64,000 bases of DNA, from contig CAVSGI010000011.1 in NCBI GenBank assembly GCA_963727445.1, forward strand, positions 1-64,000, read 5' to 3'. Positions 6,289-35,330 of this stretch are shown here, piece after piece; within the stretch, counting starts at the first letter, position 1; every line of letters begins with the position of its first letter. The notes beneath the pieces are model-generated. The model had not been told where the DNA came from and searched no databases. It worked only from the letters and a program-made list of their open reading frames with translations. Position numbers and translations under genes: made by a program. This stretch comes from an uncultured delta proteobacterium. GTDB lineage: Bacteria; Myxococcota_A; Polyangia; Polyangiales; B10-G4.

Positions 6289-6299
6289 CCCGCAACCGA

Positions 6300-7447: not shown

Positions 7448-7944
7448 GTAGGCAAGTTCTCCCGAACCAGGACGGAGCACTAGACTGTCAAAGGCCAAGC
7501 TCGAGCAGGGTTCGTAACTCAGGCCCGAAGAAACGGCGCCGACTATGCGGAGATCGCAAATCCGACTGGACATCAAAGCTCCGGTTTCCAGCCACCGTGT
7601 AAGCGGACCGGCTCCCCGGACGCCCGAAATTCCGCAGAAGTAGGAGTGTTCCGTCGCGCGCGCCAGATGACATAGCTCTGGATGGAGGGGTGGCTGCGCG
7701 CTCGACGGAACACAGTTTGAGCCGAGCCCAGTCGACGGGAGGTCCTATGGGGAAGTCACGCTTCGGAGCTGACGGTGAGCGTCCAAGCGGCGTGGAGAAT
7801 GCGGCGGCCGACGGCGCCGAGGAGGCACATGCGGAGGCATGAATGTCGCCCGACAGAGGACGCGGCGCACGCACGGGTGGTCGAGGACGGACCGGTACGT
7901 CTCCGGGTCGTGCCGGCCGAGCGCATGTGTTCGTGGCGAATGCG

Positions 7945-9120
7945 TCATGGAGGCGCCCTGACGTTGGGAAGCGGCGCAGCACAGAGCGCCATCGTCATCT
8001 CGTGGCAGCGCGGGCATCGTCTGAGGTCGATGCCGGTCAGTCGGCGGACGAGCGCGACGACAGCGTCTTCGTCCTCGGCCTCGTCGGCGTCGATGACGGG
8101 TGGCGGGGTCTCGACAGGCCTGCTCTTCGACAGCAGCGCCCGGGCCTGGGCGAGACGTCCGTGCACGTGGCGTGAAGAGAGCAAGCCGTAGTGGCGGATG
8201 CGGACGAATCCGTCGGGCAGGACGTGGCGAAGGAGGCGGCGCAAGAAGAGCGGCGCGGGCAGCGTGACCTTCTTCTGATGCCGGGTGCGAAAGGTGACGC
8301 CAGCATCGTCGACGGCGAGGATGCGGCGATTCGACAGGCCGATGCGATGCGTGTAGCGACCGAGGTAGGCGAAGACGGCGTCGGCGTCGCCGAAGGGGCG
8401 CTTGGCGTAGACGAGCCAGTCTCTGTCGTAGAGCGCGTCGAGATCGCCGGCATCGCGGAGCAGACCGCGCGCGTCGAGACGCCGGATGGCATCGAGGTAC
8501 TTACCGCGGAAGAGACGGCCGAGGACGCGCACCGGAAAGAGGAAGCCCTCCTGCGTCGCGCGCCATCGTCCATCGGCATCGAGTCCGCCGCCGGTGACCA
8601 CGCAGTGCAGATGCGGATGCCACGACAGGTCGCGGCTCCACGTGTGAAGCACGGCGGTGAGGCCGAGGTCGGCGCCGAGCCACCGGGGGTCGCGTCCGAG
8701 CTCGAGCAACGTGTCGGCCGCCACACGAAAGAGCGCATCGCACATCCGGCGGCGATTGTTGTACACGAGCGCGCGTAGCTCGGACGGCAGCGTGAAGACG
8801 ACGTGGAAGTGGTGGACGGGGAGCAGACGCGCCCGCCGCGCCTCGAGCCAGCGATGCTGAGCGAGCGCCTGACACTTGGGGCAGTGACGGTTGCGACACG
8901 AGTTGTACGACGGGCGCTCGTGGCCGCACCGCGTACACACGTCGAGGTGACCGCCGAGGGCGGCGGTCCGGCAGCGCATCCAGGCGGTCAGCACGCGTCG
9001 CTCGGGCGAGCCTCGTGGGTAGCGGGGGGCGATCTCGGCCGCGTGAGCCCGCGCGATCGCGCCCACTTCGAAACGAGGTCGCTCCGAAGACGCCGTGGCC
9101 GCCGAACAGGGCGGCGGCAC
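7945..9120 (-). CDS. IS91-family (Y2 HUH) transposase with N-terminal Zn-binding domain
   Basis: YNSCRNRHCPKC, HFHVVFT, HPHLHC (HUH), YLGRY and FVRIRHYGLL motifs. Confidence 0.93.
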   Translation of the reverse strand: MPPPCSAATASSERPRFEVGAIARAHAAEIAPRYPRGSPERRVLTAWMRCRTAALGGHLDVCTRCGHERPSYNSCRNRHCPKCQALAQHRWLEARRARLLPVHHFHVVFTLPSELRALVYNNRRRMCDALFRVAADTLLELGRDPRWLGADLGLTAVLHTWSRDLSWHPHLHCVVTGGGLDADGRWRATQEGFLFPVRVLGRLFRGKYLDAIRRLDARGLLRDAGDLDALYDRDWLVYAKRPFGDADAVFAYLGRYTHRIGLSNRRILAVDDAGVTFRTRHQKKVTLPAPLFLRRLLRHVLPDGFVRIRHYGLLSSRHVHGRLAQARALLSKSRPVETPPPVIDADEAEDEDAVVALVRRLTGIDLRRCPRCHEMTMALCAAPLPNVRAPP

Positions 9121-9126
9121 CGCGAC

Positions 9127-9989
9127 CTAGCCGAAGCGCTCGGCGGTCTCGGAGCCCAAGAGGTCGAGCGGGCTCGGCAACTGGCTGCGGCGGGCGTGTG
9201 TCAGGTGCACGTAGAGCACCGTCGATTCGATGCACGCGTGGCCGAGGATCAGCTGGACGCTGCGCAAATCGGCGCCAGCCTCGATGAGGTGCGTGGCGAA
9301 GCTATGACGCAGCGTGTGCGCCGTGACCGGCTTGTCGATGGCGGCCTGGGCGAGCGCCCGTCGCAGCGGAAGCGTGAACGCTGCCCTCGACAGACCTCCC
9401 CCTTTCGGCCGTGGCCCGGAAAGAGCCACTCACCTGCGGGTCGCACGCGCCGGTAGTAGTCGCGCAGCTGACGGAGCAGCCGCTTGGCGAGCGGCACCTG
9501 TCGCTGCTTTCCGCCTTTGGACGAGCGGACGTCGAGCACGTGCCGGTGGCTGTCGATGTCCGCCACTCGCAGTCGGCACGCTTCGGTGATGCGTAGCCCG
9601 GCCCCGTAACACAGCGTGGCGATCGTCTGATGGGTGACGGACTCGAACGAGGAGAGGAGCCGTTCGACCTCGGTGCCGCTGAGCACCAGCGGAAGCTTCG
9701 TCGGCACCGCCGCGAAGGGCAGCTGCATCACCCACTCGCTCTGCTTCAGCGTCGTGCCGTAGAAGAACCGCAGCGCCGCCGCGCACTGGTTTCGCGTCGA
9801 CGCCGACAGCCCCCGCTCCCGCGTCAACAGCAGCAGGTAGCGCTCCACCTCCTCGAGTCCCAGCTGCCGCGGGTCCTGCCCGAAGTGCTCCGCGAACTTG
9901 CGGACGTGGCGCAGGTACGCCGTGCGCGTCCCCGGACGAAACCCGCGCAACTCCATGTCCGCTTCCATCTTGATGACCAACTCGTCCAT
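9127..9989 (-). CDS. Tyrosine recombinase (IS91-associated, IntI/XerD-like), frameshift near 9400
   Basis: SAM-like N-terminus; [28 protein letters not shown] and Y motifs split over two frames at a G5 run. Confidence 0.9.
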
Positions 9990-10326
9990 CGCCTCGCTCC
10001 TTGCCTCGTCGCACCCGGTGTGGATGCGAGCGAACAGGATCGCGATGGCGAGGGAGGACCGAGCGCCGACCTTCAGAACCGCGGAGAAACCGCCCCGCAG
10101 GGGCTTGGTTGAAGGTATGATCTGTCGACTCCCTGCCCGGCCGGAGGGGAGCGGAGGCCGTTTGTGATGGCTATCAGCTATTCTTGGGCGACTACGATGA
10201 TGTAACCGCGGTAGATCCAGCAACATACCCGGGTGCGAACGGGACTTTCGCTATTTCTTGGGCAGATTCGACGCGGATATTTCCGCAGTTCGAGGTCGCC
10301 GCCGCCTACGTCAACGTCCCAAGTCC

Positions 10327-11033: not shown

Positions 11034-12065
11034 GTGGAGCACATTGGCATCGATGTTCACAAGAAGACAAGTCAGGTCTGCATCCAGACGAAAGAGGGAG
11101 AGCTGTGGGAGCGGCGCGTGGCGACGACGCGCGAAGCCCTGGCGAAGCTGTTCGCCAACCGCGCACGGGCGAAGATCGTGATGGAGGCGTCGACGGACAG
11201 CGAGTGGGTGGCTCGCTGGCTCGAGGAGCTGGGTCACGAGGTGATCGTGGCGGACCCGAACTTCGCGCCGATGTACGCCACGCGGAGCCGCAAAGTGAAG
11301 ACGGACCGGCGCGACGCGCGAGCGCTATGCGACGCCTGCCGGCTCGGCGCGTACCGCCCGGCGCACCGCGCCTCGGACGCGGCTCGGCATCGGCGAGCGC
11401 AGGTCGCGGTGCGTGACGCGCTGGTGCGCACGCGAACGAAGTACATCTCGCTCACCCGGGCACTTCTACGGCGCGAGGGGCTGTCGCCGCGAAGCGGCGG
11501 AGCGGCAACGTTTGCCGCGCGCATCGAGGAGCTGTCGCTGCCAGCGCACCTGTCGCTCGAGGTCGCCCCCCTGCTCGTGATGCTCGAGCAACTCACCGCG
11601 CAGATCCGCGACGCCGACAAGCGCCTCGCCGAGCTCGCCAAGGGCGACGAGGTGGTCGAGCGTCTGTGCACGGTGCCGAGCATCGGGCCCGTCACGGCGG
11701 TGACCTTCGTCGCGGTGGTCGACCAGATCGGCCGCTTCCACAACGCCTCGCAAGTGCGTGCCTATCTGGGCCTGGTGCCGCGCGAGCTGAGCTCGGGCGA
11801 AAAACGAATGAGAGGCCACATCACGAAGACGGGTAGTCGTCGCCTTCGGTCGCTGCTCGTCGAAGCGGCCTGGGGGATCTTGCGGCACAAACGACCGGAG
11901 ACGGCGCCGCTTCGCGAATGGACACTGCGCATCGCCGCGCGGCGCGGCAAACGAATCGCGGCGGTCGCGCTGGCGCGCAAGCTCGCGGGGATCTTGTACG
12001 CGATGTGGCGAGACGGGACGCGCTTCGAGGCGACCGTGAGTCGTGAGGAGGTGGCTGCGGCCTGA
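11034..12065 (+). CDS. IS110 transposase, intact (343 aa)
   Basis: DEDD RuvC-like motifs, GLVP..SSG and ARKLA motifs. Confidence 0.95.
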   Translation: MEHIGIDVHKKTSQVCIQTKEGELWERRVATTREALAKLFANRARAKIVMEASTDSEWVARWLEELGHEVIVADPNFAPMYATRSRKVKTDRRDARALCDACRLGAYRPAHRASDAARHRRAQVAVRDALVRTRTKYISLTRALLRREGLSPRSGGAATFAARIEELSLPAHLSLEVAPLLVMLEQLTAQIRDADKRLAELAKGDEVVERLCTVPSIGPVTAVTFVAVVDQIGRFHNASQVRAYLGLVPRELSSGEKRMRGHITKTGSRRLRSLLVEAAWGILRHKRPETAPLREWTLRIAARRGKRIAAVALARKLAGILYAMWRDGTRFEATVSREEVAAA

Positions 12066-12082
12066 CCTGCAAACGTGACGAA

Positions 12083-12315
12083 CGATGACCCGCTCTTCGT
12101 GAAGGGAACCGATTATGGTGATCGAGCGCGACATGCTTACTGGCTGCTGTCGAACGCCGACGGATAGATGGCGCCGATCACCACCGAATCCCACCCTGCG
12201 CCGCGGCCTCGAAGCCGCCCCAGTCGAGCGCGAACAGAAGGCTGAACAACCCGTCACGTACGAGCGAAACGACGAACCCGAGCCGAAGCGAAGGAGACGA
12301 GCCACGACGACGTAG
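12083..12315 (+). ncRNA. Putative bridge/seek RNA of IS110 copy 2 (boundaries approximate)
   Basis: Target guides CATGCTTACT (12132-41) and CGGATAG (12161-67); donor guides ATCCCA and ACAGAAG identical to copy 1. Confidence 0.75.
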
Positions 12316-13942
12316 AGCGCAAAATCAAAAACAACGCAGTTGACCGGGGTGGCCGCTTCACAGAAGTAACCACGAACGGCCTCGCGCCGCCGCAGGCGGT
12401 GTGACGAGTCGACAGATCGTACCTTGAACCAAGCCGCCTGCGGCGGCGGCTCCCTCGCGCCTGCCGCGTGTTATGCTGGACCCGCTGCCCATTCGGGGGT
12501 GCGGAATGCTCAGCCGACTCCTCTCAGGGCAGCTGGGAGGCAGCATTGGACAAGGGGTCCTACGAGCTCCGTGGCCTTCGTCCCCGCGGTCGAGAATAGC
12601 GTCCCGGTTCCTTGCACGTCCCACGCAGGTGGCGCGTGTATTCGTGCGCCCGCTGTGAGTCGGCGCTCGTCGAATTCCCCATAGCGCCTCTCCACCCGAA
12701 GCGGTCCCGGTAGGCTCGGCTCAAACTGTGTTCCGTCGAGCGCGCAGCCACCGCTGCCTGCAGTAGCGTCCGTCAAGGTGGTGTAAGAGGCCACCGCGTC
12801 ATCGTGGGCTAAGCGGTCATCGGCAGCGTCGGCTCCTCCGTGTCGTCGTTCGGCTTCCGGACCAAGTCCTCGAGAGAGCCGATGGTGAGGTAGCGCCTCA
12901 TGATGGCCCACTCGTCGTGCTGCTCCGCCAAGACGGCGCCGAGCAGACGAATGACAGAGTCGCGGTTGGGGAAGATGCCGACGACGTCGCTGCGGCGCCT
13001 GAGTTCCTTGTTCAGTCGTTCCTGCGGGTTGTTGCTCCACACGCGACGCCAGTGCGCCTCCGGGAAGCTCGTGAAGGCGAGCAGCTCCGGCGCGGCCTCG
13101 TCGAGGAGCTTCGCCGCGTCGCCGAAGCGCTCCTCGAGCTTGGAGACGACCTCGCTGTGCTGCGCCCAGACGGCGTCGGCGTTCGGCTGCTGGAAGATGC
13201 TGCGCACGAGCGTGGCGACGAGGCCCTGCGCGCTCTTCGGCACGCGCGTCAGCAGGTTCCGCATGAAGTGCGTCTTGCATCGCTGCCACGACGCGCCCGG
13301 GAGCACGGCGCCGACGGCGGCCTTCAGCCCCTCGTGCGCGTCGCTCACGACGAGCTTGACGCCGCTGAGACCTCGCGCGACGAGACCGCGAAGAAACGTC
13401 GTCCACGACGCTCCGTCCTCGACCGTGACGACGTCGACACCGAGCACCTCGCGGTGACCGTCGGCGTTCACGCCCGTCGCGACGACGACCGCGACATTGA
13501 CGATGCGGCCGAGCTCGCGGCTCTTGACGCACATCGCGTCGAGCCAGACGTACGGGTACGCCTCCGCATCCAGCGGCCGATTGCGGAACGCATCGACCTG
13601 CTCGTCAAGGCTCTTCGCGAGCTCGCTCACCTGCGACTTGCTGATGCCTTCGATGCCTGTTAACGAGCGACGTATCTGAGGTCGCTGCCCTCGATTTCGC
13701 GCACGAAGCGTGAGGGGAACGGGTTCGGCGAGGGGCCGATGGTCATCGCCGATTTCTTCGGTCGGCGGGGTCGTCCGGGCTCTGATGCGCGCCGGAGGCG
13801 GAGCATCGGTGCGGAGCCGGTCGCGTTAAATAGATGACGGGGGTGGGTTTGGCCGCCACTCCCCCGTCGTGCTCCGACGCAGCTGAATACGAAGCGGAGC
13901 ACTACACGAGTCGTCTACTTCGACGTCGACGTCAAGTCTTGG

Positions 13943-14485
13943 ATGAGCGCGCCGCCGTCGGTATCGGCGGTCCGGCCGGCGCGCTGTCCGTGCTGCGGTG
14001 CGCCCGGCGCGGCCGCCGGGAGGCCGAAAGCGCTGGTCGGGCATGGGCTCAGGAGCCGGATCCTGCTCGGTCCGGCCAGCCCCGATGACCGTCCCGAGGT
14101 CGCGGCGCTCGAGGCCCGACGCTACCGATGCCGGCGGTGCGGGGCGATCGTCGTCAGCTTGCCGCGCGGCGTGCTGCGCCGACTTCGCTACACCGCCGTG
14201 GCCATCGCCCTCGCGCTCGCGATGTGGGTCGACGGGACGTCGAGCGCCGCAGTCCGCACCCGCGTCAGCCCCTTCGCCATCGTCGGCGACGACGCCATCC
14301 GCGGCTGGCGCTCGCTTCGCCGATGGGCACGTGCAGCCCGTCGGCTCTGGCCGCCGATCCGTCCTGCGCCCCACGCCTCGCCGCGACTGCTCGCGGCCGA
14401 CGTCGTCCGCCAGCTCGCCGCGCTCGCGCCGCTGACGACCGGCGCCCTCGTCCGCGACGCGTGCGCCGGAGCGCTTCGATGCTGA
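13943..14485 (+). CDS. Transposon accessory Zn-ribbon protein
   Basis: CPCC and RYRCRRC motifs; first gene of the element. Confidence 0.65.
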   Translation: MSAPPSVSAVRPARCPCCGAPGAAAGRPKALVGHGLRSRILLGPASPDDRPEVAALEARRYRCRRCGAIVVSLPRGVLRRLRYTAVAIALALAMWVDGTSSAAVRTRVSPFAIVGDDAIRGWRSLRRWARAARRLWPPIRPAPHASPRLLAADVVRQLAALAPLTTGALVRDACAGALRC

Positions 14486-14592
14486 GGGACATCGGGTGCG
14501 ATCTCGCACGGATGCAGGGCCCACCACATGGGGTCGTCGCGGTCGCCACGACGGCCGGTGCCTCCTCGGCGCTCGACCGAAAGGAGACATCG

Positions 14593-15921
14593 ATGACCGA
14601 CAAGCTCAGTGCCAAAGACCACGCCGAGGCCGTCGCGCTCTTCCGCGCGCAGGTGATCGGGCCGCTCGTGTGCCGCGACGACCTGACGCACGGCGAGCTC
14701 GCCGAGGCGCTGCGCGAGCTCAGCGCGCAGCCCTTCCGTCCGCCCGGCGCCGACGTGAGCCGCACGTACGCCATCTCGACGCTCGAGCGCTGGCTCTACC
14801 GATACCGAAAAGGGGGGCTCGGTGCGCTCGTCCCTCAGCGCCGCAGCGATCGCGGCCACGCGCAGGCGCTCGACGACGCGCAGAAGAAGCTGCTCGTCGC
14901 CATCCGCAAGGCGCACCCGCGCGTGAGCGCCGCGCTGATCTTGAGGACGCTCGTCTCGGACGGCCGTCTCGAGGCGGGAGTCGTCACCGAATCGACGCTC
15001 CGGCGTTTCTACGCCGAGCGCGGTCTCGACCGCCAGACGCTGAAGCACGCGGAGCACGGGCCGCGCCGCCGCTGGCAGTCGCCCCGGCCGAACGCGGTCT
15101 GGCACGCCGATGTCGTGCACGGCCCGGCGCTCCGCATCGCGGGCAAGAGCGTGCCGCTGCGCATCCACGGCATCCTCGATGACCACAGCCGCTACGTCGT
15201 GGCGATCGAGGCGTGCGCGACAGAGCGCGAGAGCGAGATGCTCCGGCTGATCGTCAAGGCGATGCGCCTGCACGGTCCGCCGGACGTGCTCTACCTCGAT
15301 AACGGCGCGACGTACGTCGGCGACACGCTCAAGACGGCGTGCTTTCGCCTCGGTGTCGCGCTCGTGCACGCGCGTCCACGCGACCCGCAGGCGCGGGGCA
15401 AGATGGAGCGCCTGTGGCGGACGCTTCGCGAGCAGTGTCTGTCGCACCTGCACGAGCCCGCGTCGCTTCACGACGTGCAGCTGCGCCTGCTCGCCTGGCG
15501 CGACAAGCACTACCTCGTCACCCCGCACGGCTCGCTGATGGGCAAGACGCCCGCCGAGGTCTACGAGGCCTACGAGCCCGAGCACGTGACCGAGCCGATG
15601 CTGCGCGAAGCCCTCATCGTCCGCGGACGTCGCCGCGTCCGTCGCGACTGCACCGTCTCGGTCGCCGGCCGCGACTTCGAGGTCGCCCAGGGCTACCTCG
15701 CGGGGCGCCTCGTCACGATCGGCCGGTGCCTGCTCGACCCGACCGAGCCGCCGTGGGTCGAGCACGAGGAGCAGCGCCTCGTGCTCAGCCCCGTCGACCC
15801 GACGAGCAACGCCCGACGTCGACGGACGGCCGAGCGACGACGCCGCGGCCTCGACGCCGTCGACTTCGACCCGCCGGGCGCGCTCCTCGCCGAGCTCACG
15901 AAGAAGGGCGGTCGCTCGTGA
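14593..15921 (+). CDS. DDE (rve/Mu-type) transposase
   Basis: AAGGAG RBS before ATG; WHAD, LDDHSR, YLDNG and GKMERLWR motifs; Mu-like C-terminus. Confidence 0.9.
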   Translation: MTDKLSAKDHAEAVALFRAQVIGPLVCRDDLTHGELAEALRELSAQPFRPPGADVSRTYAISTLERWLYRYRKGGLGALVPQRRSDRGHAQALDDAQKKLLVAIRKAHPRVSAALILRTLVSDGRLEAGVVTESTLRRFYAERGLDRQTLKHAEHGPRRRWQSPRPNAVWHADVVHGPALRIAGKSVPLRIHGILDDHSRYVVAIEACATERESEMLRLIVKAMRLHGPPDVLYLDNGATYVGDTLKTACFRLGVALVHARPRDPQARGKMERLWRTLREQCLSHLHEPASLHDVQLRLLAWRDKHYLVTPHGSLMGKTPAEVYEAYEPEHVTEPMLREALIVRGRRRVRRDCTVSVAGRDFEVAQGYLAGRLVTIGRCLLDPTEPPWVEHEEQRLVLSPVDPTSNARRRRTAERRRRGLDAVDFDPPGALLAELTKKGGRS

Positions 15922-16733
15922 GCGCCCCGCGATGGCTCGGCGCCTTCGGTCTTTCGCGTGCGCCCTTCAGCAAGGAGCTCGGTGACGCCGAGCTGTGGGT
16001 CCCCGCCTCGCGCAAGCGCATCGTCGACCGCGTCGTCGAGGCGTGCCACGAGCGCGGACACGTCCTGCTCACCGGCGAGCCCGGCGTCGGCAAGACCTGC
16101 GTCCTACGCGCCGTGCGCCGCCGCCTCCCCAGCGACGGCTTTCGCCTCACCTACTGTCACAACGCCACCCTCGGGCGCCGCGATTTCTACCGTCAGCTCT
16201 GCCTCGCGCTCGGCCTGAGCCCGAGCGCCACCGCCGCCGCCGTCTTCTACGCCATCAACACGCACGTCACCGAGCTCGGCACCGAGCGCATCCACCCCGT
16301 CTTCCTCCTCGACGAGGCGCACCTGCTTCACCAGGACGTCCTCGACCACCTCCACATCCTCACCAACTACGAGTGGGACTCCGCCGCGCTCCTCTCGCTC
16401 GTCCTCGTGGGCCTGCCCGACCTCGACGACCGCCTCGCCCTGCGCAAGAACCGCTCGCTGCAGAGCCGCGTCCACACGCGCCTCCACCTCGGCGAAGCGC
16501 TCCCCGAGGACACCGCCGAGTACGTCGGTCATCGCATGAAGCTCGCCGGCTGCTCCCGCGACGTCTTCACCACCGACGCCATCGCCCTGCTCCACGAGGT
16601 CTGCGCCGGGCGCCTGCGCGACATCGACCGCCTTGCGACCGACGCCCTCAAGCGCGCCGCCCGCCGCAAGGCCCGCAAGGTCGACCACCAGATCGTCGAG
16701 CTCGTCTTCAAGGGCGACGACATCGACGACTGA
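15918..16733 (+). CDS. ExeA/TnsC-like AAA ATPase
   Basis: Walker A GEPGVGKT, Walker B FLLDEAH; GTGA overlap with the transposase stop. Confidence 0.9.
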   Translation: MSAPRWLGAFGLSRAPFSKELGDAELWVPASRKRIVDRVVEACHERGHVLLTGEPGVGKTCVLRAVRRRLPSDGFRLTYCHNATLGRRDFYRQLCLALGLSPSATAAAVFYAINTHVTELGTERIHPVFLLDEAHLLHQDVLDHLHILTNYEWDSAALLSLVLVGLPDLDDRLALRKNRSLQSRVHTRLHLGEALPEDTAEYVGHRMKLAGCSRDVFTTDAIALLHEVCAGRLRDIDRLATDALKRAARRKARKVDHQIVELVFKGDDIDD

Positions 16734-17490
16734 CAGCGCCGCGCCACGCACCATGATGGCCTTCGCGTCTCGGCAGCGCATCGCCGGACGCGAGGGCCAT
16801 CGCCTGCGTCAGCTGCTCGTCATGCCGCGAGGGGCATCAAGCAGGCTGCGTGAAAATCCCTCGGATAGCGTGCGCGGTAACAATGCCGAGCTGCTTCACG
16901 ACGGCGTCGACCTTCCGCGTCGATACGCCCTGCACCCACGTCTCGGCGATGACCGCCACGAGCGCCTTCTCGCTCCGCTTGCGCGGCTCGAGCAGCCAGT
17001 CCGGAAAGTAGCTCCCCTTGCGCAGCTTCGGAATCGCCAGGTCGATGCTGCCGACCCGCGTGTCCCAACGCCGTCGTCGAAATCCGTTGCGCTGATTCGT
17101 CCGCTCCTCGCTCCGCACGCCCCACGGCGCGTTGCACAGCCCCTCGGCCTCCATCTCCATCAGCGCCTCGGCCATGAACTGCACCATCGACCGGAGCTGG
17201 TCGCCGTCCGCTGCTTCGAGGTGCTTGCGCATCAGCGCCACTGCATCCATCGTCTTCTTCGTCTCGGTCATCGTCGTCCTCCTCGTTGGTTCGCAACTCG
17301 AAGATGACGCGATGGCCGAGACGTTAATAGGTCTCAGGCTTGATCACTCGTGCCTGCTCTTACACCACGCGATTGGACGTTACCCTGCCTGCACAGCTAC
17401 GTCATCTGGCGCGCGCGACGGAACACTCCTACTTCTCGGAAACTCGGGCGTCCGGTGAAGGGGTTGGCTTCCGTGGAGGCTGGAAACCGG

Positions 17491-17898
17491 AGCTACAAGA
17501 ACCCGAAGATCCTCGACGCCGAGGCGCTTCGCGCCGCGAGCGTCGCCCTCGCCGACGTCGACATCCGGAACGAGAGCTTCGAGGCGCTCCTCGAGAACGC
17601 CCGCCCCGGCGACTTCGTCTACTTCGATCCGCCTTACGCGCCTGTGAGCGAGACCGCGAACTTCACGAGCTATGCCCAGGACGGCTTCGGCCCGGACATG
17701 CAGGTGAAGCTGCGCGACGTCTACCGCGTGCTCGACCGGCGCGGCTGCAAGCTGATGCTCTCCAACAGTGACGTCCCCTTCATCCGCGACCTGTACCGCG
17801 GCTTCGAGATCGACACCGTGGCGGCACCCCGCGCCGTGAACTGCGACGCGACCCGCCGCGGCAAGGTCAGCGAGGTCGTCGTCCGCAACTACCAGTGA
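17491..17898 (+). pseudogene. DNA adenine methylase (Dam/D12 class), C-terminal part only
   Basis: YKNPKI, DFVYFDPPY, FTSY and LSNS motifs; 5' part replaced by the element B end. Confidence 0.85.
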
Positions 17899-20940: not shown

Positions 20941-21029
20941 GCCCAAGTCGCCGAGCCCTAAAGTGCGTACCTTGTACGGTTGTGTGGACCCGGTCGTACG
21001 TGTGACCCTTCTACTCGAGGGTGGTAGGC

Positions 21030-24000
21030 ATGCGAGTCGGCGTTTTCCTGGGGTTGTCGGTCCTCTTTGTCACGGCGTGTAGTGGCGGCGACGAGCCACC
21101 CGACGGCGCCATGGACAGCGCCACCGACAGCACGATCGGCGATGGGACCGTGGACGGCGACGGCGCGCCCATGGACGTTCCGCTTTCGGACGTCGGGCCC
21201 ACGTGCACCACCGACGTCGATTGCGACGACGGAGATGCCTGCAACGGAACCGAGACCTGCGACACCGCGACGGGTATGTGTGCCGGCGGCACCGCACCCG
21301 CGGATGGAACGACCTGTGACGCGGATGGGATGCCCTCCACCCCGGACATCTGCCTCGCTGGAACCTGCGTCGCCTCCACCTGCGGCGACGGCTATACGGA
21401 CACGGCTACGGACGAAGAGTGTGACGACGCCAACACGACCATCGGTGACGGTTGCGACGCCTGCCGGGTCGAGTGCCTGGCCGACACCGACTGCGACGAC
21501 ATGGACCCGTGCAACGGCGTCGAGGCCTGCGACCCTCTGACGCGCGCGTGCACGACGGGTTCCTCGGCTCGCGACGGCACCATCTGCGACGCGGACAGCG
21601 ATCCCACGACCCGCGACATCTGCCGAGGTGGGACCTGCGACGCCTCGATCTGCGGTGATGGGTACGTGGATACGGTCGGGGGGGAGTACTGCGACGACGG
21701 CAACGTCATCGATGGCGATGGTTGCGATTCGACGTGCACGATCGACTGCAGCACGGACTCCGACTGTGAGGACGGAAACGCCTGCAACGGCACCGAAACC
21801 TGCGACGCGACCACCATGGTCTGCGTGGTCGGGACGGTCAGCCCAGACGGGACGGTCTGCGACGCGGATGGCGTGCGTTCCACCCGCGACATCTGCCTGG
21901 GCGGATTGTGCGGCCTCTCGATTTGTGGCGACGGTTACGTCGACCGACGCGAGGACTGCGACGACGGCAACACCGTCGACGGGGACGGATGCGACAACGA
22001 TTGCAGCTATTCCTGCCGCCGCGACCGTGACTGCGACGATGGAAGCCCGTGCAGCGACGACACGTGCGACACCGGCGCACACCGCTGCAACTTCACACCG
22101 GCGGGCGCAGGAACGGTGTGCCGCGCCTCGACCGGCGGGTGCGATCCCGCGGAGACATGTGACGGCGCGTCCACCGCCTGCCCCGCCGACGCATTCGAAG
22201 CGGCGGGGGCCGTGTGCCGAGACTCTACCGGCGGGTGCGATCCCGCCGAGACCTGCGACGGTACGACCGCGGCTTGTCCCGCCGACGCGCTCGAGGCCGC
22301 TGGCTTCGTGTGTCGCGCGGCGGTGAGCCTCTGCGATATCGAGGAAACCTGCGACGGCAGCAGCGCCGCCTGCCCGACCGACGCCCTCGCGTCGGCCGGC
22401 ACCGTGTGCCGGGCATCGGCCGGAGCCTGCGACGTCGACGAAGTCTGCGATGGCGCATCCAACACGTGCCCGGGCGACTTGCTGGCCGCTGCCGGCTCGG
22501 TCTGCCGGGCCGCCGTCGGCACCTGCGACATCGACGAAACCTGCGACGGGTCGTCGGCCGCCTGTCCGACGGACGCGGTGGCCAGCGCGGGCACCGCCTG
22601 CCGCGCGTCCGCTGGCGCATGCGACGTCGGCGAAACGTGCGACGGCACCAGCGGCAGCTGCCCGAGCGATGGCTTCGCCGCCGCGGGCACGGTCTGCCGA
22701 TCCTCCATGGACACCTGTGACGTCGAGGAGACGTGCACAGGCTCCAGCGCGACCTGTCCCGCGGACGCTTTCGCCGGGCTGACCGTGATCTGCCGCGCGT
22801 CGACCGCCCCCTGCGATGCGACCGAGACCTGCGACGGATCGACCGCGGCGTGCCCCCCCGACGGCTACGAGCCGACGGGCACGGTCTGTCGAAGCGCCGC
22901 CGATGCGTGCGACGCCGACGAGATCTGCGATGGCTTCAGCTACGCCTGCCCGGCTGACGCCTTCGCGCCGGTGGGCACCACCTGCCCCGGAGGCACCTGC
23001 GACGGGCTGGGAATGTGCTCCGCCGGCTGTACGCCCGGGGCGTCGTGCAGCACGGGCAATCCCTGCGAGCTCGGGACGATCGACTGCAGCAGCGGCTCAC
23101 CCGTGTGTGTGTCCGCCGGGCCCGCTCCGTCGACGACGGTCTGCCGCCCGGCGACCGCGCCCTGCGACATCGAGGAGCGCTGCTCGGGCACCAGCACCTC
23201 CTGCCCCGGTGACCGCTTCCTCACCGGAACCGTCTGCCGGCCGGCGTCCGGCGCCTGCGACGTCCCCGAGACGTGCACCGGAGGCAGCGGATCGTGTCCG
23301 CCAGACGGATTCGCGGCATCCGGAGTCGTCTGCAGGACCGCCGCCGGACCATGCGACGTCGACGAAACCTGTACCGGCGGAAGCAGCGCGTGCCCACCGG
23401 ACTCCTTCAGCTCGGCGGGCACGGTCTGCCGAGCGTCGGCGGGCGTCTGTGACGTTGCGGAGACCTGCGACGGCGCCGCCGCGCTGTGTCCGACGGATTC
23501 CTTCGCCGCCTCCGGCACCACCTGCCGTGGATCCACGGGCGCTTGCGATCTGGAAGAGCGTTGCGATGGCGCCACCGCCGATTGCCCCGCCGACGCCCTC
23601 ACCGCCGCGGGGACCGTGTGCCGCAGCGCCACCGGCGCCTGCGACGTCGCGGAGACCTGCGACGGAGCGAGCACCGCGTGTCCAGCGGACGGTTGGGCCG
23701 CCGCCGGTACGACGTGTCGTGCGGTCGCAGGGCCTTGCGACGTCGCCGAGCAGTGCACCGGCGGGTCGGCGGCCTGCCCCCCCGATGCCTTCGACACCTC
23801 CGGCTCGATCTGTCGGGCGTCCGGCGGCGCATGCGACGTCCCAGAGGCCTGCAACGGAACCGGCGTGATGTGCCCGCTGGACGTCTTCGTGTCGGCCGGC
23901 ACCGAATGTCGCGCGTCGGCTGGCGCCTGCGACGTGGCCGAGGCGTGTAGCGGCACGTCCGCCACGTGTCCCGCCGACGGGGCGCGCTCCTTCGGAACAC

Positions 24001-26544
24001 TCTGTCGGGCGGCCTCTGGTCTGTGCGACCTCGATGAGCGGTGCGATGGGTCCAGCCCGACCTGTCCGGCCGACGCGCTCGCCGCGTCCGGAACCGTCTG
24101 TCGCTCGGCGGCTGGCGCCTGTGACATGGCCGAGACCTGCAGCGGCTCCTCCGCGTCTTGTCCGGCCGACGGTCTTCAGGCCTCCGGCTTCGTGTGTCGC
24201 TCCGCGACGGGAGAGTGCGACCTCGCCGAGACCTGCGATGGGGCGAGCACGTCGTGTCCCATGGATGGGTATGCCCCGAGCGGCCAGATGTGTAGCGGCG
24301 GTACGTGCGACGGCCTCGGCATGTGCGTGTCGGGATGCACCGGAGGCGCCTCGTGCAGCACGGGCAACCCGTGCGAGGTCGGCACGATTGACTGCAGCAC
24401 CGGCAGCCCGGTCTGCGTGTCGGCCGGTCCGGCGAGCGCGGGGGTCGTCTGTCGGGCGGCGACCGGGCCCTGCGACGTTCCCGAGACCTGCACGGGCTCG
24501 AGCACCACGTGTCCTTCCAACGCCTTCGAGCCTTCGAGCACCGTCTGCCGCGGAGCCGCGGGGGCGTGCGATGTCGCGGAGACCTGCACCGGCTCGAGCG
24601 CCAGCTGCCCCGCCGACAACCTGGCCACGAGCGGCACCGTCTGCCGAGCCGCCGCGGGGACCTGCGACGTGGCCGAGACCTGCTCCGGGTCGAGCCCGAG
24701 CTGTCCCGCCGACTCGTTCGTCAGCAGCGGCACCAGCTGCCGGGCGTCGGCGGGGCCGTGCGACGTGGCGGAGTCCTGCACGGGCTCGAGCGCGAGCTGC
24801 CCCGCCGACGGATTCGCCAGCTCTAGCACCGTGTGTCGGACTGCGAGCGGCGCATGCGACGTGGCCGAGACCTGCTCCGGCGTGAGTGCCGCGTGTCCGG
24901 CGAACGGCTACGCGAGCTCCGGCACGATTCTGTCGAAGCGCGAGCGGTGCGTGCGACGTGGCCGAGACCTGCTCCGGGTCCAGCGCCTCGTGCCCGGCGA
25001 ACGGCTACGCAAGCGCCGGAACGACCTGCCGCGCCGCGGTGGGGCCGTGTGACGCGACCGAAACCTGCTCAGGGTCCAGCGCATCGTGTCCCGCCGACGG
25101 CTACGCGAGCTCCGGAACGACCTGTCGGGCGGCGAGCGGCGGGTGTGACGTCGCGGAGAGCTGCACGGGCTCGAGCGCATCCTGCCCGGCCGACGGCTTC
25201 CAGAGCGGCGGGACGACGTGTCGCTCCTCCGCCGGCCCCTGTGACGTCACGGAGAGCTGCACGGGCTCGAGCGCGTCCTGCCCGCCCGACGGATTCCAGA
25301 GCTCCTCGACGGTCTGCCGTGCGTCGGCCGCACTGTGTGACGCCGCCGAGACGTGCACCGGATCGGGTGCGCTCTGTCCGGCGGACGCACCAGCTTCGGC
25401 CGGCACGGTCTGCCGCGCCATGAGCGGGATGTGCGACGTCGCCGAGATGTGCGACGGGACCTCGATGTCCTGTCCGGCGGACGCGAGCGCGCCCGATGGC
25501 ACCTCGTGCGACATCGATGGCAACCCCGCCACGCCGGACGTGTGCCTCGCGGGTGTGTGCACGGGCTCTTCGTGCGGCGACGGAACCGTGGACATGGCGA
25601 GCGGCGAGCAGTGCGACGACATGAACACCACGCGCCTCGACGGCTGCGACCCGTTCTGTCTCATCGAGCAGAGCGTACGCTTCGACAGCATCGCCGTTCA
25701 GGGGCCGAGCTTCGGGTGTACCGACATCGACAGCGACGGATCCATCGACAACCAGATCGGCACCGCGTTCTCGTCGACGGCGCGAAGCCAGCTCAACGGG
25801 GACGTCGCGACGTCCGTCGACAACGGCGACTTCAACTTGCTGATGCCACTGCTGGGCCTCGACGACCTGCTCGGGCAGAACGACCCGGCTCTGCGTCTGG
25901 GTATCGTGAACTCCAACGACGCGGTGAGCCCCTTCGACGGAACCAGGGGCGAGGATTTCCTGGCGTGGGCGAGCGCCGTCGACGGGACGGGCCTGCCCAC
26001 ATCGATCGTCGATCCGGCCATGGTGAGCGGGGGCATGCTCACCTCGTCGGGCCGGATCGCCAACATGGACGTGCTCCTCTACGGCGATTGGGTGTCGTGG
26101 ACCTTCGAGCGTGCGCGGATCAGCGGCACGGTGGTTCCCGACACCGGGATGATGCGCGTCGACTCCATCTCCAACGGGATGCTCTGCGGAGCGATCCCCG
26201 CGGCTTCGCTCGATCGCAGCGTGATGCCGGACACCCTCGCGTCGGTCTGCCCGGCCTACGCTGGCGACTCGTTCCTTGACGCGCTCGTGGGTGGCTGTCG
26301 CTTCAGCTTCATCACGCTGATCACCGGCAGTCAGCCTGACATCGATATCGAAGGCGACGGGATCTACAGCCCGGCCCTCGAAGACACCAACGGCGACGGA
26401 CGCATCGACCGCTGCCGCGATGGGGCCAGCGGCACCATCATCACCGGTGACAACTGCGCCCAGGACCCCCGCTTCGACGACGCCTACTCGGTCGCTTTCA
26501 GCTACACGGCCATCCGCGCCGACCTGGTCGGCGTCGCGCCGTAG
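21030..26544 (+). CDS. Giant Cys-rich lipoprotein with DUF4215-type and ~32 disintegrin-like repeats; one frameshift near 24929
   Basis: Lipobox VTAC; CGDG..CDDGN..GDGC repeats; 32-aa units VCRAAAGPCDVAETCTGSSASCPADGF continue across ORFs 21021-25052 and 24886-26544. Confidence 0.88.
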
Positions 26545-28669: not shown

Positions 28670-29431
28670 TCAATCCGCCGTGAGCCAGAGGATGAGGGCC
28701 GTGATGCCCGCCGCGAGCGCTGCGCCTCCTGCGATGAGCATCACCGTGAAGGCCGTTTCGAGGGTGGGGTTGCGATCCTGAATGTCCGCCTGGGTGGCCG
28801 CGTACTCCGGCTCGTCGTACGGCGGCAGGTGCATGGCGCGAATCTCGCGGAGTTGATCGGCCTGCCCGTCGAGATCGGACCACAGGGAGTAGGTCCACCC
28901 GCCGGCCACGCCCGCCCCGGCGGCGAGAGCGAGCGCACCGACGGTGAACGCCCAGGGCAGCGCGTGGCTGGGCTCGGGCGGCGGAGCCTCGTGCGGCGTC
29001 CGCTCCAGAGGCTCCTGTCGTTCCTCGGGCGTGGCGACCGGCGGGGCCGGCCGCTCTCCCGTCAGGCGCTCGATCGCATCGGCCGCGAATTGGCGCACGT
29101 TCTCATCGGCGGAGGAGGAGCTCCAGATGCGCTCGTAGGTTTCGACGGCGTCGTCCGGGCGTTCGGCCCACTCGTAACACGCGCCCAGGCGCGCGAGAGC
29201 CCCGGGTGTCGGGTAGATGCCGTAGGCCTCTTCGCAGGACTCGATGCCCCCGTCGACATCTCCGTCGTCGATCTGTCGGCGCGCGCGATCGAAGAGGCCC
29301 ATCGCGCGTTCGCGCACGCCCTCGCCTTCCTCGCCACTCTGGGCGAAAGCGCGAGCGGTTGAGAATGCGGACGCAATCACGATCGCTAGAGCGACCGCGA
29401 ACGACCGGCGGATGAAACCGTCCTTCCCCAC
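28670..29431 (-). CDS. TPR-containing exported/membrane protein
   Basis: Signal peptide, TPR-like helices (EEAYGIYP..LGACYE), C-terminal TM segments; start inferred at GTG. Confidence 0.7.
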   Translation of the reverse strand: MGKDGFIRRSFAVALAIVIASAFSTARAFAQSGEEGEGVRERAMGLFDRARRQIDDGDVDGGIESCEEAYGIYPTPGALARLGACYEWAERPDDAVETYERIWSSSSADENVRQFAADAIERLTGERPAPPVATPEERQEPLERTPHEAPPPEPSHALPWAFTVGALALAAGAGVAGGWTYSLWSDLDGQADQLREIRAMHLPPYDEPEYAATQADIQDRNPTLETAFTVMLIAGGAALAAGITALILWLTAD

Positions 29432-29439
29432 GCGCGCGA

Positions 29440-31166
29440 TTATAGCGGAGGAAGGTCCTGCGGTCGTGGGCCACGCCTCATCATGCTGGAGGCGGTCATC
29501 ATGGCGGGCGGCTCGGGGGCCGTCATCACGGGCGGTGGCGTGGTCTCCATGACGCTGGCGGTCGTGGTCGTCTGGGCCGTGTGGCCGCGCATTCCGCGCG
29601 GGCGTGAGCGCCCCCGCCTGCGGATCGGCTCGAGGGTCGCCAGGGCGTGGCCGTCTTCGGGGTGCACCGTCGCGGATACGAATCCAGCCCGTCGGAGCTC
29701 GAGCTCTTCTTCGCACCTGGAGGCATCGCATGGGGTCGACGCGCAGATGCGCTCGCCGCCGGCCCAGACCGATGCGCCGGGGGGATCGCTCTCGACGCGA
29801 CACGTGGTGTCGGACGCGGCCTCGGCCGTCGCGACCTCCGGCGACTCCTCTTCGTCGGCCGGCAGCTCCTCCTCGTTCGAAGCCTCGCTCACCGCGTGTT
29901 CATCCGCGGGGCTCGACTCCGTGGTCGCCGTTTCGTCGTCCTGCGTGAGCACTGCCACCGCGGCGGCGCCAGCGACGGCGCCCACCAGGATCAGCAGGAG
30001 CATCGGGAGCGGCACTCCCTTCGTGCGTTGAGGAGGCGGCTGCGACCTGGCCTTCGCGACCTCTCGCGCCGATGGCAGCTCGAGCGAGTTTTCCGTCGTT
30101 CGCTCGAACGCCGATTCGATGGGCTCCCCCCCGCAGCCAGCCCCTCCAGGAGCTTCTGCTTCGCCGTGCGCTCCGCGCTGAAGAGATCCGTCATCAGGTC
30201 TGAGACCTCTTCGGCTCCGATCGCGCGGCCCTTGCTCGCGACGTACTGGTCGAGCGCGCGCTTGAGATCGCGTGCGGTGGGGAAGCGATCGTCGCGGTTC
30301 TTCTTCAACGCGCGAAGCACGATCGCTTCGAGCTCGGGCGGGTAGTCGTCGACCACATCGCTCGGCGGTATCGGCTCGGTCTCGAGGAGGCGATACAAGA
30401 GCTCGACCTCGAGCGGGCCGTCGTACAACCGCGTGCCCGTCGTCATCTCGTAGAGCACCACGCCGAGGGACCAGATGTCGGCGCGCCGGTCGACGCCCTC
30501 GCCCCGTGCCTGCTCGGGGCACATGTAGGCGAACTTGCCCTTCACCTGCCCGGCACGCGTCACCGTCGTGCGCCCCGCGCTCTTCGCAATACCGAAGTCG
30601 AGGACCTTGACGTGCCCATCGTAGGTCAAGAAGAGATTCTGAGGTGAGACGTCGCGATGGACGACGCCCAGCGGCTCGCCATCGCGGCCATGCATCTCGT
30701 GTGCGTGGTGCAGGCCCGCCGCGGCGCGCGAGATGACGTGTGCCGCGAGGATCGGATCGAAGCGCCGCTCCCGTCGGCGGAGCGCCCGAATCGTCTTCGA
30801 GAGCGTCTCGCCGAACAGGTACTCGAGCGCCATGAAATACGTGTCGCCGGTGTGGCCGAACTCGTAGATCTGGACGACGTTGGGGTGGTTGATCTGGGCC
30901 CCGAGCCGCGCTTCATCGAGGAACATCTCGACGAACTCGTCGCGCTCCACCAGCTTGCGGAGGACGCGCTTGATGACGACCGGGCGCTGGAAGCCTTCGG
31001 GCCCCATCTGTCGAGCGAGGTAGATCCCAGCCATTCCCCCCGAGGCGATCTCCGTGAAGATCTCGTATCGCCCAATCTGCCGGGAATCAGCCGCCGGGTA
31101 GGTCCCGGATTTCTCGTCCCTGGCCCCCGCGACGGTCGTCTTGTCTTCGCTCGGCACTTGGGCCAA
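29440..31166 (-). CDS. Transmembrane Ser/Thr protein kinase with PEGA-like C-terminus; frameshift near 30128
   Basis: IASGGMA, VVIKR, HRDVSPQN, DFG and YMCPEQ motifs; TM and VESDPPGA in the second frame; switch at a C7 run. Confidence 0.9.
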
Positions 31167-31229: not shown

Positions 31230-31587
31230 TTGGTCCATTATCGCGACGTGGAGCTCGTTGGGGGACGGTTCGAGCTGCGAGGCGAAGCCGGCGCCGGAGC
31301 CATGGCAAAGGTCTTTCGCGCTCACGACCTCCACACCGACGAGACGGTCGCCGTCAAGATCCTCCACCCGGGCTCGGACACCAACTACCGCCGTTTCGAG
31401 CGGGAAGCGAGCGTGCTCGCCACGCTTCGCACCCCGGGCGTCGTGCGTTACGTGGCCCACGGGCGCGCGCCCGATGGCCAGCCGTTCCTCGCGATGGAGT
31501 GGCTCGATGGGTTCGACCTCGAAGAGTGGCTGCGGGATCGCACGTGCACCGCGGATGAGGTGCTGGTGCTCGGCTGCGCGTTGGCGA
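31230..31587 (+). pseudogene. Ser/Thr kinase N-lobe, truncated by a repeat unit
   Basis: GAGAMAKV, VAVKIL, RFEREA and LAMEWL motifs, then abrupt switch to repeat sequence. Confidence 0.85.
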
Positions 31588-31682
31588 GCTCCGGTTTCCA
31601 GGCCTCGACGGAAGCCAACCCCCTCACCGGACGTCCGAGTTTCGCAGTAGGTATGATCTGTCGACTGGCCCGCGCGGGGCCA
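31588..31682 (-). repeat. Empty repeat unit C (both end regions of element A fused at AGG)
   Basis: GCTCCGGTTTCCAG..TCACCGGACGTCCGAGTTTCGCAGT joined to AGGTATGATCTGTCGACT (18/18 identical to 10113-10130). Confidence 0.85.
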
Positions 31683-31808
31683 TTCCATTCTACACATCAC
31701 ACTGTAAAGTGGGACGCGGATGATTGGACACGGATGCCGCGGTCTGGTTTGAGCATCTACGCACGGTTCAGGCTGCAGAGGCTCTGCGCGAGCACGGCGC
31801 CGCCCTCG

Positions 31809-32597
31809 ATGACGTCAGCCGCGCTCGCCATCTTGACCTCCAGCGTGATGTTCGGTGCAGGATGCGGCCGGGCCAACTACGACGTCATCGATGCATCGGC
31901 GGAAACCGGCATGGACGGAAGTGACCTCCATGACGCGGACGGCGGCAACCCGTTCCTGACCGAGGCGCTCCTCGCCCACTTCCCGCTCGACGAGACCTCG
32001 GGCTCTTCATTCGTCGATGCGACCGGTCATGGCTACGACGGATCTTGCACCGCGTGTCCGAGGCTCGGCGTTCCCGGCCGATCGAACAATGCGGTACGCT
32101 TCGACGGCACCAACGCGATCGTCGTCGTCAACACGATCAACTACGGCCCGGGTGATCAAGTGTCCGTCGCCGCATGGGTGCGACACGACAGCGCCGGGTG
32201 CGCTTCAGTCAGCGACGCCGAATGCTACGTGGTCGCCAAGAACCAATTCAACAACCTCACCCCTTACAACCTTCAGGTCACGGTGGCTGGGGCGGCGGAG
32301 CTCTACGTTGGAGACGTCGGCACCGAAGCAGGCAGCGCCGCCGGCACCGTTGGAGACGGCGCCTGGCACCACCTGGTCGGGACTTTCGATGGAGCCAACA
32401 TCGCCCTCTTCGTCGACGGAGCGATGCGCGGCACGGGAACCGGCACACCCCAGTCGAACACCGAGCCGCTCGCGATCGGAGCCTCGGCGACCGGTGCTTC
32501 GTACCGGCCATTCGTCGGCGACATCGATGACGTTCGGATCTACGAGCGCGCGCTGTCCGCGGATGAGGTCGCGCAGCTCTACGCGGCCTATCAGTAA
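31809..32597 (+). CDS. LamG/concanavalin A-like domain lipoprotein
   Basis: FGAGC lipobox-like signal; AHFPLDE, SVAAWV, WHHLVGTFDG and GDIDDVRIYERALS motifs. Confidence 0.85.
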   Translation: MTSAALAILTSSVMFGAGCGRANYDVIDASAETGMDGSDLHDADGGNPFLTEALLAHFPLDETSGSSFVDATGHGYDGSCTACPRLGVPGRSNNAVRFDGTNAIVVVNTINYGPGDQVSVAAWVRHDSAGCASVSDAECYVVAKNQFNNLTPYNLQVTVAGAAELYVGDVGTEAGSAAGTVGDGAWHHLVGTFDGANIALFVDGAMRGTGTGTPQSNTEPLAIGASATGASYRPFVGDIDDVRIYERALSADEVAQLYAAYQ

Positions 32598-32603
32598 CCG
32601 GGC

Positions 32604-32630
32604 TCACCGGACGCCCGAGTTTCCGAGAAG
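32604..32630 (-). repeat. Isolated internal module of the repeat scaffold
   Basis: TCACCGGACGCCCGAGTTTCCGAGAAG is the exact reverse complement of 17432-17458. Confidence 0.85.
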
Positions 32631-32783
32631 ATGTGACCGCTCACTCGTGACAGATGACGAAGCCGCCGGAGCTCCAACCTGGATAGACGTCCACCTCGAT
32701 CTCGTTCGGCGTACCCGTAGGCCAGATGAGGCCCTGATCACAGGTGCGTCCAGCCGCGGCGAAGGTGAGGTTCGCTCTGCCCG

Positions 32784-32921
32784 GCTCCGGTTTCCAGCCT
32801 CCACGGAAGCCAACCCCCCCTCACCGAACGTCCGAGTCTCGCAGTAGGAGCGATTATGTAGCCCCTGGCTCACGGGAGGATGGCGGAAGGCCGTTCATGC
32901 TCGTTCATGCTGACTATCAAC
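32784..32921 (-). repeat. Complete minimal repeat unit D with a 10-bp internal duplication
   Basis: GCTCCGGTTTCCAG...GGC CGTTCATGCT CGTTCATGCT GACTATCAAC. Confidence 0.85.
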
Positions 32922-34719: not shown

Positions 34720-34730
34720 AGACGCCGTCT

Positions 34731-35236
34731 GGCGGTACGCGCCCAGCCGGCAGGCGTCGCACAGCGCCCGCGGATCGCGCCGGTCCGTCTTCACTTTGCG
34801 GCTTCGCGTGCCGTACATCGGCGCGAAGTTGACTCGACCCTTCGGGTCGTCGACAGGTCTGTACCCGCGCGGCTCCGTGGACTTGCGTCCACTCCGCTTC
34901 GCACGGCTACAGCCATGTTCGGGTCCGCCACGATCACCTCGTGACCCAGCTCCTCGAGCCAGCGAGCCACCCACTCGCTGTCCGTCGACGCCTCCATCAC
35001 GATCTTCGCCCGTGCGCGGTTGGCGAACAGCTTCGCCAGGGCTTCGCGCGTCGTCGCCACGCGCCGCTCCCACAGCTCACCCTCTTTCGTCTGGATGCAG
35101 ACCTGACTTGTCTTCTTGTGAACATCGATGCCAATGTGCTCCACGGCTGGCCTCCACTCTGCGGCTCTTGACCGCGATCAACGTTGTGGGGCTACGGCTA
35201 CCACGTCAGTGGCGGCCAGCCGCTTACATCCCATCT
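34731..35236 (-). mobile_element. IS110 copy 3, 5' remnant with an 89-bp insertion
   Basis: Near-identical to 10942-11360; left end GTTGATAG|ATGGGATG; truncated next to the REP-like hairpin. Confidence 0.9.
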
Positions 35237-35330
35237 ATCAACCTAGTCGACCGCATGGAGTGCGTTCGCATTCTTAGCTTGCGCCGGTACTCCTGCGTGA
35301 CGGCTATCCTCGGCGCAGCTCACTGGATGG

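Follow-up and report, generated by a model that had tools for sequence, protein, structure and literature searches.

The window, i.e. the whole stretch of 64,000 nucleotides that was analysed, is the start of contig C11 in the source assembly of an uncultured delta proteobacterium (G000; 9.47 Mb, 69% GC). It holds several related short units, here called outer units, two of which are split by a larger inner element. In composite A the inner element occupies 7640..10113 on the minus strand (2,474 bp) and carries genes for an IS91-family HUH Y2 transposase (7945..9120, minus strand, 391 aa) and an integron-like tyrosine recombinase (9127..9989, minus strand, frameshifted near 9397-9405). Its downstream (ori-side) end is marked by hairpin gamma (7646..7713), a long stem of putative attC-like design, which is followed by T′ (7716..7729, plus strand), an inner inverted copy of the far end that is predicted to pair with the far end in a circle junction. 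The upstream (ter-side) end T and its short hairpin lie at 10090..10113 on the minus strand. The element is bordered by the two halves of an outer unit in plus orientation: the left half (7580..7639), a variant of the so-called delta module with the final arm ATTCCGCAGAA at 7629-7639, and the right half (10114..10173), which comprises the spacer GGTATG, a XerD-like arm, a hairpin and the presumed origin terminus.

Element B (12424..17432, minus strand) is a non-coding derivative of the inner element, inserted at the same AA^G site (the caret marks the crossover). The loop of its hairpin gamma holds an IS256/Mutator element, which is itself interrupted by an rve-type element. The left half of outer unit B (17433..17491, minus strand) lies in a DNA methyltransferase gene and the right half at 12365..12423 (minus strand). 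A and B face each other (7577-17494). Compared with C21:6866 and C12:22426, which are empty, they show swapped delta and right-half alleles. This is what one would expect from an inversion of 10114-12423 at the crossovers, but the combination seen in A also occurs empty at C21:216.

Unit C (31590..31692 with a presumed right end, plus strand) is an empty miniature origin end of an ISCR-like (family-1) element within a kinase gene fragment. Its dif-like core (31639..31666, plus strand) consists of a XerC-like arm GTTTCGCAGTA (31639-49), the spacer GGTATG (31650-55) and a XerD-like arm ATCTGTCGACT (31656-66), with the crossover position at 31649/31650. It is followed by a partial unit (32598..32640, plus strand), in which the arm GTTTCCGAGAA continues into a different partner, GATGTG..., and by the empty unit D (32786..32916, plus strand) with a second right-half allele, GGAGCG.... 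Unit C joins two gene fragments in frame: 31230-32597 is an open chimeric frame of 455 aa that combines a kinase N-lobe, the read-through of unit C and a LamG domain. Elsewhere in the window, 21021-25600 encodes a long protein that is rich in cysteine and has some 30 tandem repeats of 96 bp. A search of 4500-36000 against Rfam gave no match.

A profile of the delta module matched 46 positions in the genome, and a recognisable centre is kept in 34 of these units, 30 of them empty and four filled. Two Y2_Tnp families are present in the genome. One is represented by the 391-aa transposase of the inner element, the other (family 1) by an ISCR-like protein of 487 aa, which scores 333 bits against NF052416, under the cut-off of 925. 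On contig C24 an empty outer unit begins 89 bp past the stop codon of an intact gene for this ISCR-like transposase, in the same orientation. The outer unit is therefore the origin end of a separate ISCR-like element. The left end of the delta module was also considered as the origin and rejected, as the transposase lies upstream and the origin terminus at the right end. Since empty units outnumber filled ones by 30 to 4 and an empty unit stands behind an intact ISCR-like transposase gene, we regard the empty form as the ancestral state. Copies of an IS110 element (5258-6560 and 11034-12364, with a third fragment at about 34726-35242) abut the origin terminus of outer units; elsewhere in the genome, this IS110 end stands behind at least six more units.

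The two layers of composite A are two different mobile elements, one inside the other and in opposite orientation. A preceding sequence-only reading had recognised two layers, but had taken them for a single element with an excisable core of its own; the outer layer, however, belongs to another transposase. The cassette-like design that it proposed was borne out, but not the notion that unit C is A minus its core. The left half of unit C is not that of A, since it carries the common delta allele and an arm ending in TA. Unit C is thus most simply a never-occupied site rather than an excision scar. The different right partner noted in unit D is a second natural right-half allele, found in 6/34 units. 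The arm alleles are combined with the right-half alleles in each of the four possible ways (12, 6, 4 and 2 units), which fits the suggested exchange of modules at the crossover, though with a core other than AGG; recurrent change or gene conversion could also account for this distribution. A G follows the arm in 33/34 units, a figure that is partly built into the search pattern.

The exact register of the junctions proved decisive for a model in which one two-layered element is processed by its recombinase, which excises the core at the triplet AGG and leaves unit C. All strings on which this model was built are present in the window, namely GAAGT-AGG-AGTGTT (AGG at 7642-44) and GTTGA-AGG-TATGATC (10113-15) in A, GCAGT-AGG-TATGATCTGTCGACT in unit C and GCAGT-AGG-AGCGATT in unit D. 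A MAFFT alignment yields the AGG register too, yet at the price of a 4-nt gap in both unit C and unit D, and this accounts for the error: the left boundary at 7642-44 is off register by 4 nt, and the crossovers in A are AA^G at 7639/7640 and 10113/10114. The right-hand AGG (10113-15) and that of unit C (31649-51) both span the true crossover. When 7640-10113 is removed from A, the common empty form results, and among empty sites genome-wide there are nine (7+2) of the AA^G forms and none of those predicted by the AGG model. An empty twin of A at C21:216, which has the same delta variant and a left flank identical over at least 113 bp (up to the contig end), reads GAGAA^GGCATG and is thus empty in the AA^G form. 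A twin of the inner element on C22 (99.8% identical, far end beyond the contig edge) ends in CAAG-ACGG without an AGG; its position is an AA^G within an 11-6-11 palindrome of unrelated sequence, the empty homolog of which is C10:1573038. In a second myxobacterial genome (G097, see below) the junctions have the triplet CTT, or AAG on the complementary strand, and AGG is absent. With zero predicted empty sites, AAG-A in C22, CTT in G097 and an outer unit that belongs to another transposase, we reject the AGG model as to its register and regard it as very improbable altogether. What holds is a fixed crossover beside hairpin gamma, with AA^G as the true core; the breakpoints of the delta-module copies, the scatter of which would have spoken against a site-specific exchange, are fixed.

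All four gamma ends visible in G000 (A, B, C21:12684 and C12:54758) follow an arm ending in GAA; they are preceded by GAGAA or GCAGAA and start with GTAGGAG. At their far ends, A and B have GGTT(G/C)AA, then GGTA. As AGG is not the core and two separate mobile elements are involved, the circle junction forecast earlier, GGTTGA followed by AGG, is wrong; the AA^G model forecasts GGTT(G/C)-AA-GTAGGAG, which in A would be GGTTG-AA-GTAGGAG. The circle junction of the inner element had no match in the assembly, and neither circle nor excision event was observed there. Some further arrangements in G000 deserve mention. T-like ends in opposite orientation occur at C20:105267 and C12:8989 on the other side of the 6-bp spacer (G^AT), i.e. 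at the XerD-side boundary. In the unit at C12:54821 the outer arm of gamma joins the right half directly via GGCGG, likely a deletion scar of an inner element, and the same array on C12 contains a second recombinase fragment (29316-29912, 51% identical). The perfect 11-6-11 palindromes at C22:5142-5169, C10:1573038 and C10:1575247 lie beside another tyrosine recombinase gene, in a duplicated element, and one of them received the C22 twin.

A candidate chromosomal dif site was located at C3:34506, reading ATTTCGCAGAA GATAGA TTATGTAAACT. It is identical in the congener G001 and lies at the peak of the cumulative GC skew, with a switch of KOPS motifs from 8:0 to 4:16. It also resembles the Myxococcus and Geobacter dif sites given in PMC2731167. 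The core of unit C deviates from this candidate at 6/22 arm positions and is one of only 13 positions genome-wide (both strands) with at most six arm mismatches; the left arm of A is identical to the XerC arm of dif at 10/11 positions. Judged by these similarities, the centre of the outer unit is a putative mimic of chromosomal dif, and its core would represent a dif/pdif-like 11-6-11 site. The inner element is inserted exactly at the boundary between XerC arm and spacer of this site, which we take to be the position of XerC cleavage.

The 391-aa transposase of the inner element belongs to the IS91 family, with matches to PF04986 and PF14319, a score of 392 bits against NF033538 (cut-off 125) and the motifs HPHLH and YLGRY, i.e. 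an HUH motif and two catalytic tyrosines. Its recombinase has a SAM_4 domain and is intact (287 aa) in the C22 twin. Although its best match in the PDB is VchIntI4, it lacks the IntI insertion (query 178-207 stands opposite 180-249 of the 2A3V chain), and with 209 bits it remains under the TIGR02249 cut-off of 265. This insertion is described as essential for integron function in PMC8138268. The lack of it agrees with the placement of IS91 recombinases in an integron-like subgroup without IntI insertion, as outlined in bioRxiv 10.1101/542381. The gene pair as such is already in print in that preprint and in PMC9208149, the latter listing 245 IS91-'XerD' couples in 15 phyla. We found no published description of the ends, the target or the mechanism of this subgroup in the accessible portions of these sources. 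The recombinase gene lies upstream of the transposase gene in 77/79 GTDB loci, the other two being short contigs, and it is located between both element ends in A, C22 and G097.

The ends of the inner element are structured. Hairpin gamma, at the position where it had been proposed, is real (z -3.5; 0/200 shuffled sequences fold as well). End T has GGTTG in A and GGTTC in B and C22, beside a short hairpin. For the circle junction, the predicted fold has an outer stem measuring 9-13 bp in G000, while the one in G097 reaches about 25 bp; when 30 nt of the far end are included for A, the small terminal hairpin out-competes the T/T′ pairing. T′ is fold-predicted in A, and relatives have the same layout. 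Many of them start with GTT-GAAC (GTT-GAACGAAGCC) and end with GTTCAAC, a hairpin and GTT, which suggests an attC-like design. Among the loci listed, a fuzzy search found the left motif in 59/67, the inner copy in 60/67 and both in 55/67, counts that come without a shuffled control and include false matches and on which none of our conclusions is based. For IntI, the substrate is the folded bottom strand of attC (PMC3053210).

In a search of 100 related genomes, 19 were found to contain a transposase match at E <= 1e-30. The same two layers are present in G097, a second myxobacterial genome of the same order but a different family (97% complete). It has 21 near-full empty units. Compared with its likely dif, its units show two pattern mismatches in 18 cases and three in two; a reversed control gave none. 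Among 59 loci compared there, every one of the 12 distinct right junctions is preceded by a XerC-like arm with the final bases TAA (four arm variants). Of the 11 distinct left junctions, ten are situated in the unit itself, and a group II intron separates the remaining one from it. Three of six candidate family-1 (ISCR-like) loci carry a unit about 100-250 bp past the last aligned residue. At L124:650-4080 and L119:6524-11411 the group II intron sits within the same CTT triplet at the left junction of the element, so that in G097 a third mobile element uses the dif-like core. This placement is reminiscent of group IIC-attC introns.

Outside these two genomes the picture is different. In G080 no dif-like unit site was found, and its element lies in a different repeat. 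Across all 104 loci, 71 ends could be scored, and only five of them resemble a XerC arm with three mismatches or fewer; the majority of these five lie out of register or represent the element's own repeat. Homing to dif as a trait of the whole family was therefore rejected, and dif-like homing is a habit of a subfamily. The apparent match at L009 was discarded, as it is the element's own repeated end and the true target is another 11-6-11 palindrome. At L008 the flank is similar to a XerD arm, but this locus lacks its left end, and a clear dif was not found in that genome. The int-IS91 family reaches 87 matches in G102 and 50 each in G103 and G104, tandem copies included; such tandem copies occur in G080, G104 and G105.

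These data bear on the possibility that the inner element behaves like an IMEX, in that the HUH enzyme makes a folded circle which host XerC(D) integrates at dif-like sites, its own recombinase being an accessory. The crossover is indeed at the boundary between XerC arm and spacer in both G000 and G097, and the host encodes XerD (above cut-off) and XerC (333 bits against a cut-off of 335). Moreover, CTXphi-type IMEXs use a XerC-initiated exchange that is resolved by replication, according to PMC9226527. Yet no element occupies chromosomal dif in G000, G001 or G097, the copy on C22 resides in a palindrome with seven arm mismatches to the candidate dif, relatives whose ends are built in the same way insert into many targets other than dif, which correspond to the guide bases of the relatives themselves, and the recombinase is retained in 77/79 loci. 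We consider integration by the host enzymes unlikely.

Further clues to the mechanism came from the relatives, for which we compared 28 regions in G104 (of 50 matches), 25 in G102 (of 87) and 16 in G101 (of 21). In all three genomes the constant part of the right end extends to one triplet base and is followed by two variable bases; the two bases ahead of GGAC at the left end vary as well. In one repeated target, the left end shows AA in one copy and TG in the other (L301 and L190), with AA on the right. The dinucleotide is therefore neither derived from the target nor duplicated, and a target-site duplication was rejected. Left dinucleotides other than the guide are present among the right flanks in 11/13, 10/11 and 6/7 cases (nominal p 0.001, 0.003 and 0.007, which assume independent copies and uniform dinucleotides, although the copies are not independent). 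A point against this match of left and right flanks is that TT, the commonest right dinucleotide in G101 (7/16), never occurs on the left there (0/16). Taken together, the pattern of both ends suggests that the varying dinucleotide results from an exit by the HUH enzyme and an entry by the recombinase. In the simplest reading, the recombinase would bring the element in at N^NN, and exit would occur at GTTC/GTCC, two bases farther outward. These correspond to the tetranucleotides cut by IS91-family transposases (PMC13181058). In G000 and G097 the carried dinucleotide equals that of the target (both AA in G000), and the two-cut model is therefore borrowed from the relatives. The strand convention for IS91-family cleavage at GTTC/GTCC is presumed here.

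An alternative would be that plain IS91 rolling-circle transposition at CTTC/CTTG does everything, which would leave the recombinase with no task but the resolution of circles or cointegrates. Read on the coding strand, the ends in the window are CTTC/CTTG, like the IS91 targets in PMC13181058. Filled units account for 4/14 of those with an AA (GAAG) arm and for 0/20 of those with a TA (GTAG) arm, to which unit C belongs (Fisher p 0.02, copies not independent). However, the genome offers 132,151 GAAG/CTTC sites, and still every insertion is in an 11-6-11 dyad; the CTTC seen in the window belongs to an arm of such a dyad. In G101, G102 and G104 positions 1-4 of the ori-side flank are variable, without a conserved tetranucleotide, specificity resides on the opposite side, and two bases seem to be carried. 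The simple IS91 rule of a GAAG tetranucleotide was dropped on these grounds, and we find it improbable that the transposase acts alone.

Conversely, the recombinase alone could excise and integrate the element by staggered cuts with a Tn916-like coupling sequence, the HUH enzyme only replicating the circle. The varying dinucleotide resembles a coupling sequence, and the tandem copies in G080, G104 and G105 would be in line with this option. Tyrosine recombinases are known to make cuts with a stagger of 6-8 bp, and the 2-nt stagger required here is far from that. In addition, the second cut falls exactly after GTTC/GTCC, the tetranucleotides of the IS91 family (PMC13181058). A division of labour that leaves the HUH enzyme such a minor role appears doubtful to a similar degree.

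A comparison with known systems shows that the inner element shares traits with several of them. Like IS91, IS801 and IS1294, it has a Y2 HUH transposase above the NF033538 cut-off and causes no target duplication, and its upstream end has GTTC with a subterminal hairpin (for the motif GTTC/CTCG, see PMC13181058). In contrast to IS91, it targets an 11-6-11 dyad instead of a tetranucleotide beside oriIS, its two ends are predicted to pair with each other, and two flanking bases seem to be carried.

As in integron cassettes, a long end hairpin is completed by the far end in the predicted circle, and the nearest structure is VchIntI4. IntI crosses over after the first base of the triplet, and so does the inner element (G^TT in many relatives). 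Unlike a cassette, it carries the recombinase inside the mobile unit, without the IntI insertion and together with an HUH gene; the triplet in this genome is CTT, and there is no attI/Pc platform. With respect to the consensus RYYYAAC...GTTRRRY, the RYYYAAC side and the element start fit in G080 and G019; the window has AAA/CTT. The spacers of the core sites are 1-3 and 5 nt in this comparison, against the usual 5 and 5-6 nt of attC.

With the IMEXs CTXphi and TLCphi the inner element shares its position at the edge of the XerC arm in a dif-like site and a predicted folded single-strand substrate, a folded single strand being the substrate of CTXphi. It differs in encoding its own recombinase and in using dispersed dif mimics instead of chromosomal dif, and most of its relatives are not associated with dif-like sites. 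Homing of an insertion sequence to dif-like sites on other mobile DNA is also known from the IS1202-type pdif hunters (ISAjo2; PMC10132070), and cargo between dif-like sites recalls the dif modules of Acinetobacter. IS1202, as characterised there, has a DDE transposase, terminal inverted repeats and a 5-bp duplication and inserts 5 bp outside the XerC arm (PMC10132070). These features are absent here, and the inner element splits the dif-like site itself. The outer unit, found 89 bp behind an ISCR-like transposase gene and mostly as solo copies, is comparable to ISCR and miniature oriIS derivatives; a point of difference is its dif-like core. Going by titles, we found no published report of a dif-like core in an ISCR origin. 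Likewise, no report of a carried dinucleotide or of homing into a dif-like ISCR origin was found in the titles, listings and text passages covered by our literature search.

On the observed junctions, empty alleles, resemblance to dif and identical layout in a second genome we base the following scenario, which we hold to be probable, albeit with considerable reservation. Unit C is an unoccupied dif-like site in an ISCR origin, and the int-IS91 element is located in such sites at AA^G, where it likely arrives as a folded single-stranded circle produced by the HUH enzyme and is likely inserted by its own recombinase. The Y2 transposase would copy the element out, starting two bases into the flank and ending at GTTC. 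The joined ends would then fold into an attC-like hairpin, and the recombinase would exchange one strand at AA^G with the double-stranded 11-6-11 site, before replication completes the insertion. Landing sites would be plentiful in G000 because the ISCR-like origin carries a mimic of dif.

More tentatively, and with more doubt than confidence, one may envisage shuffling on two tiers, in which the ISCR-like element stacks captured DNA between copies of its origin that serve as working pdif sites reshuffled by XerCD, and this arrangement is parasitised by a cassette that exits through an HUH enzyme and enters through an insertion-less relative of IntI. If true, such a system would be a living intermediate of rolling-circle transposons, Xer/dif mobile elements and integron cassettes, and a small number of guide bases at the end hairpin's foot would determine which target is chosen.

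IS91 transposases are paired with an integron-like recombinase in many phyla, and in the accessible parts of the literature cited above we did not find a published role for this recombinase. The locus described here offers matched filled and empty sites, a crossover defined to the base and a testable division of labour between HUH enzyme and recombinase. If our interpretation is right, recombination of hairpins is possible without the IntI insertion; the element would also point to a way in which integron cassettes may have arisen and would provide a compact system for site-specific insertion, the target of which follows guide bases in the element's own end.
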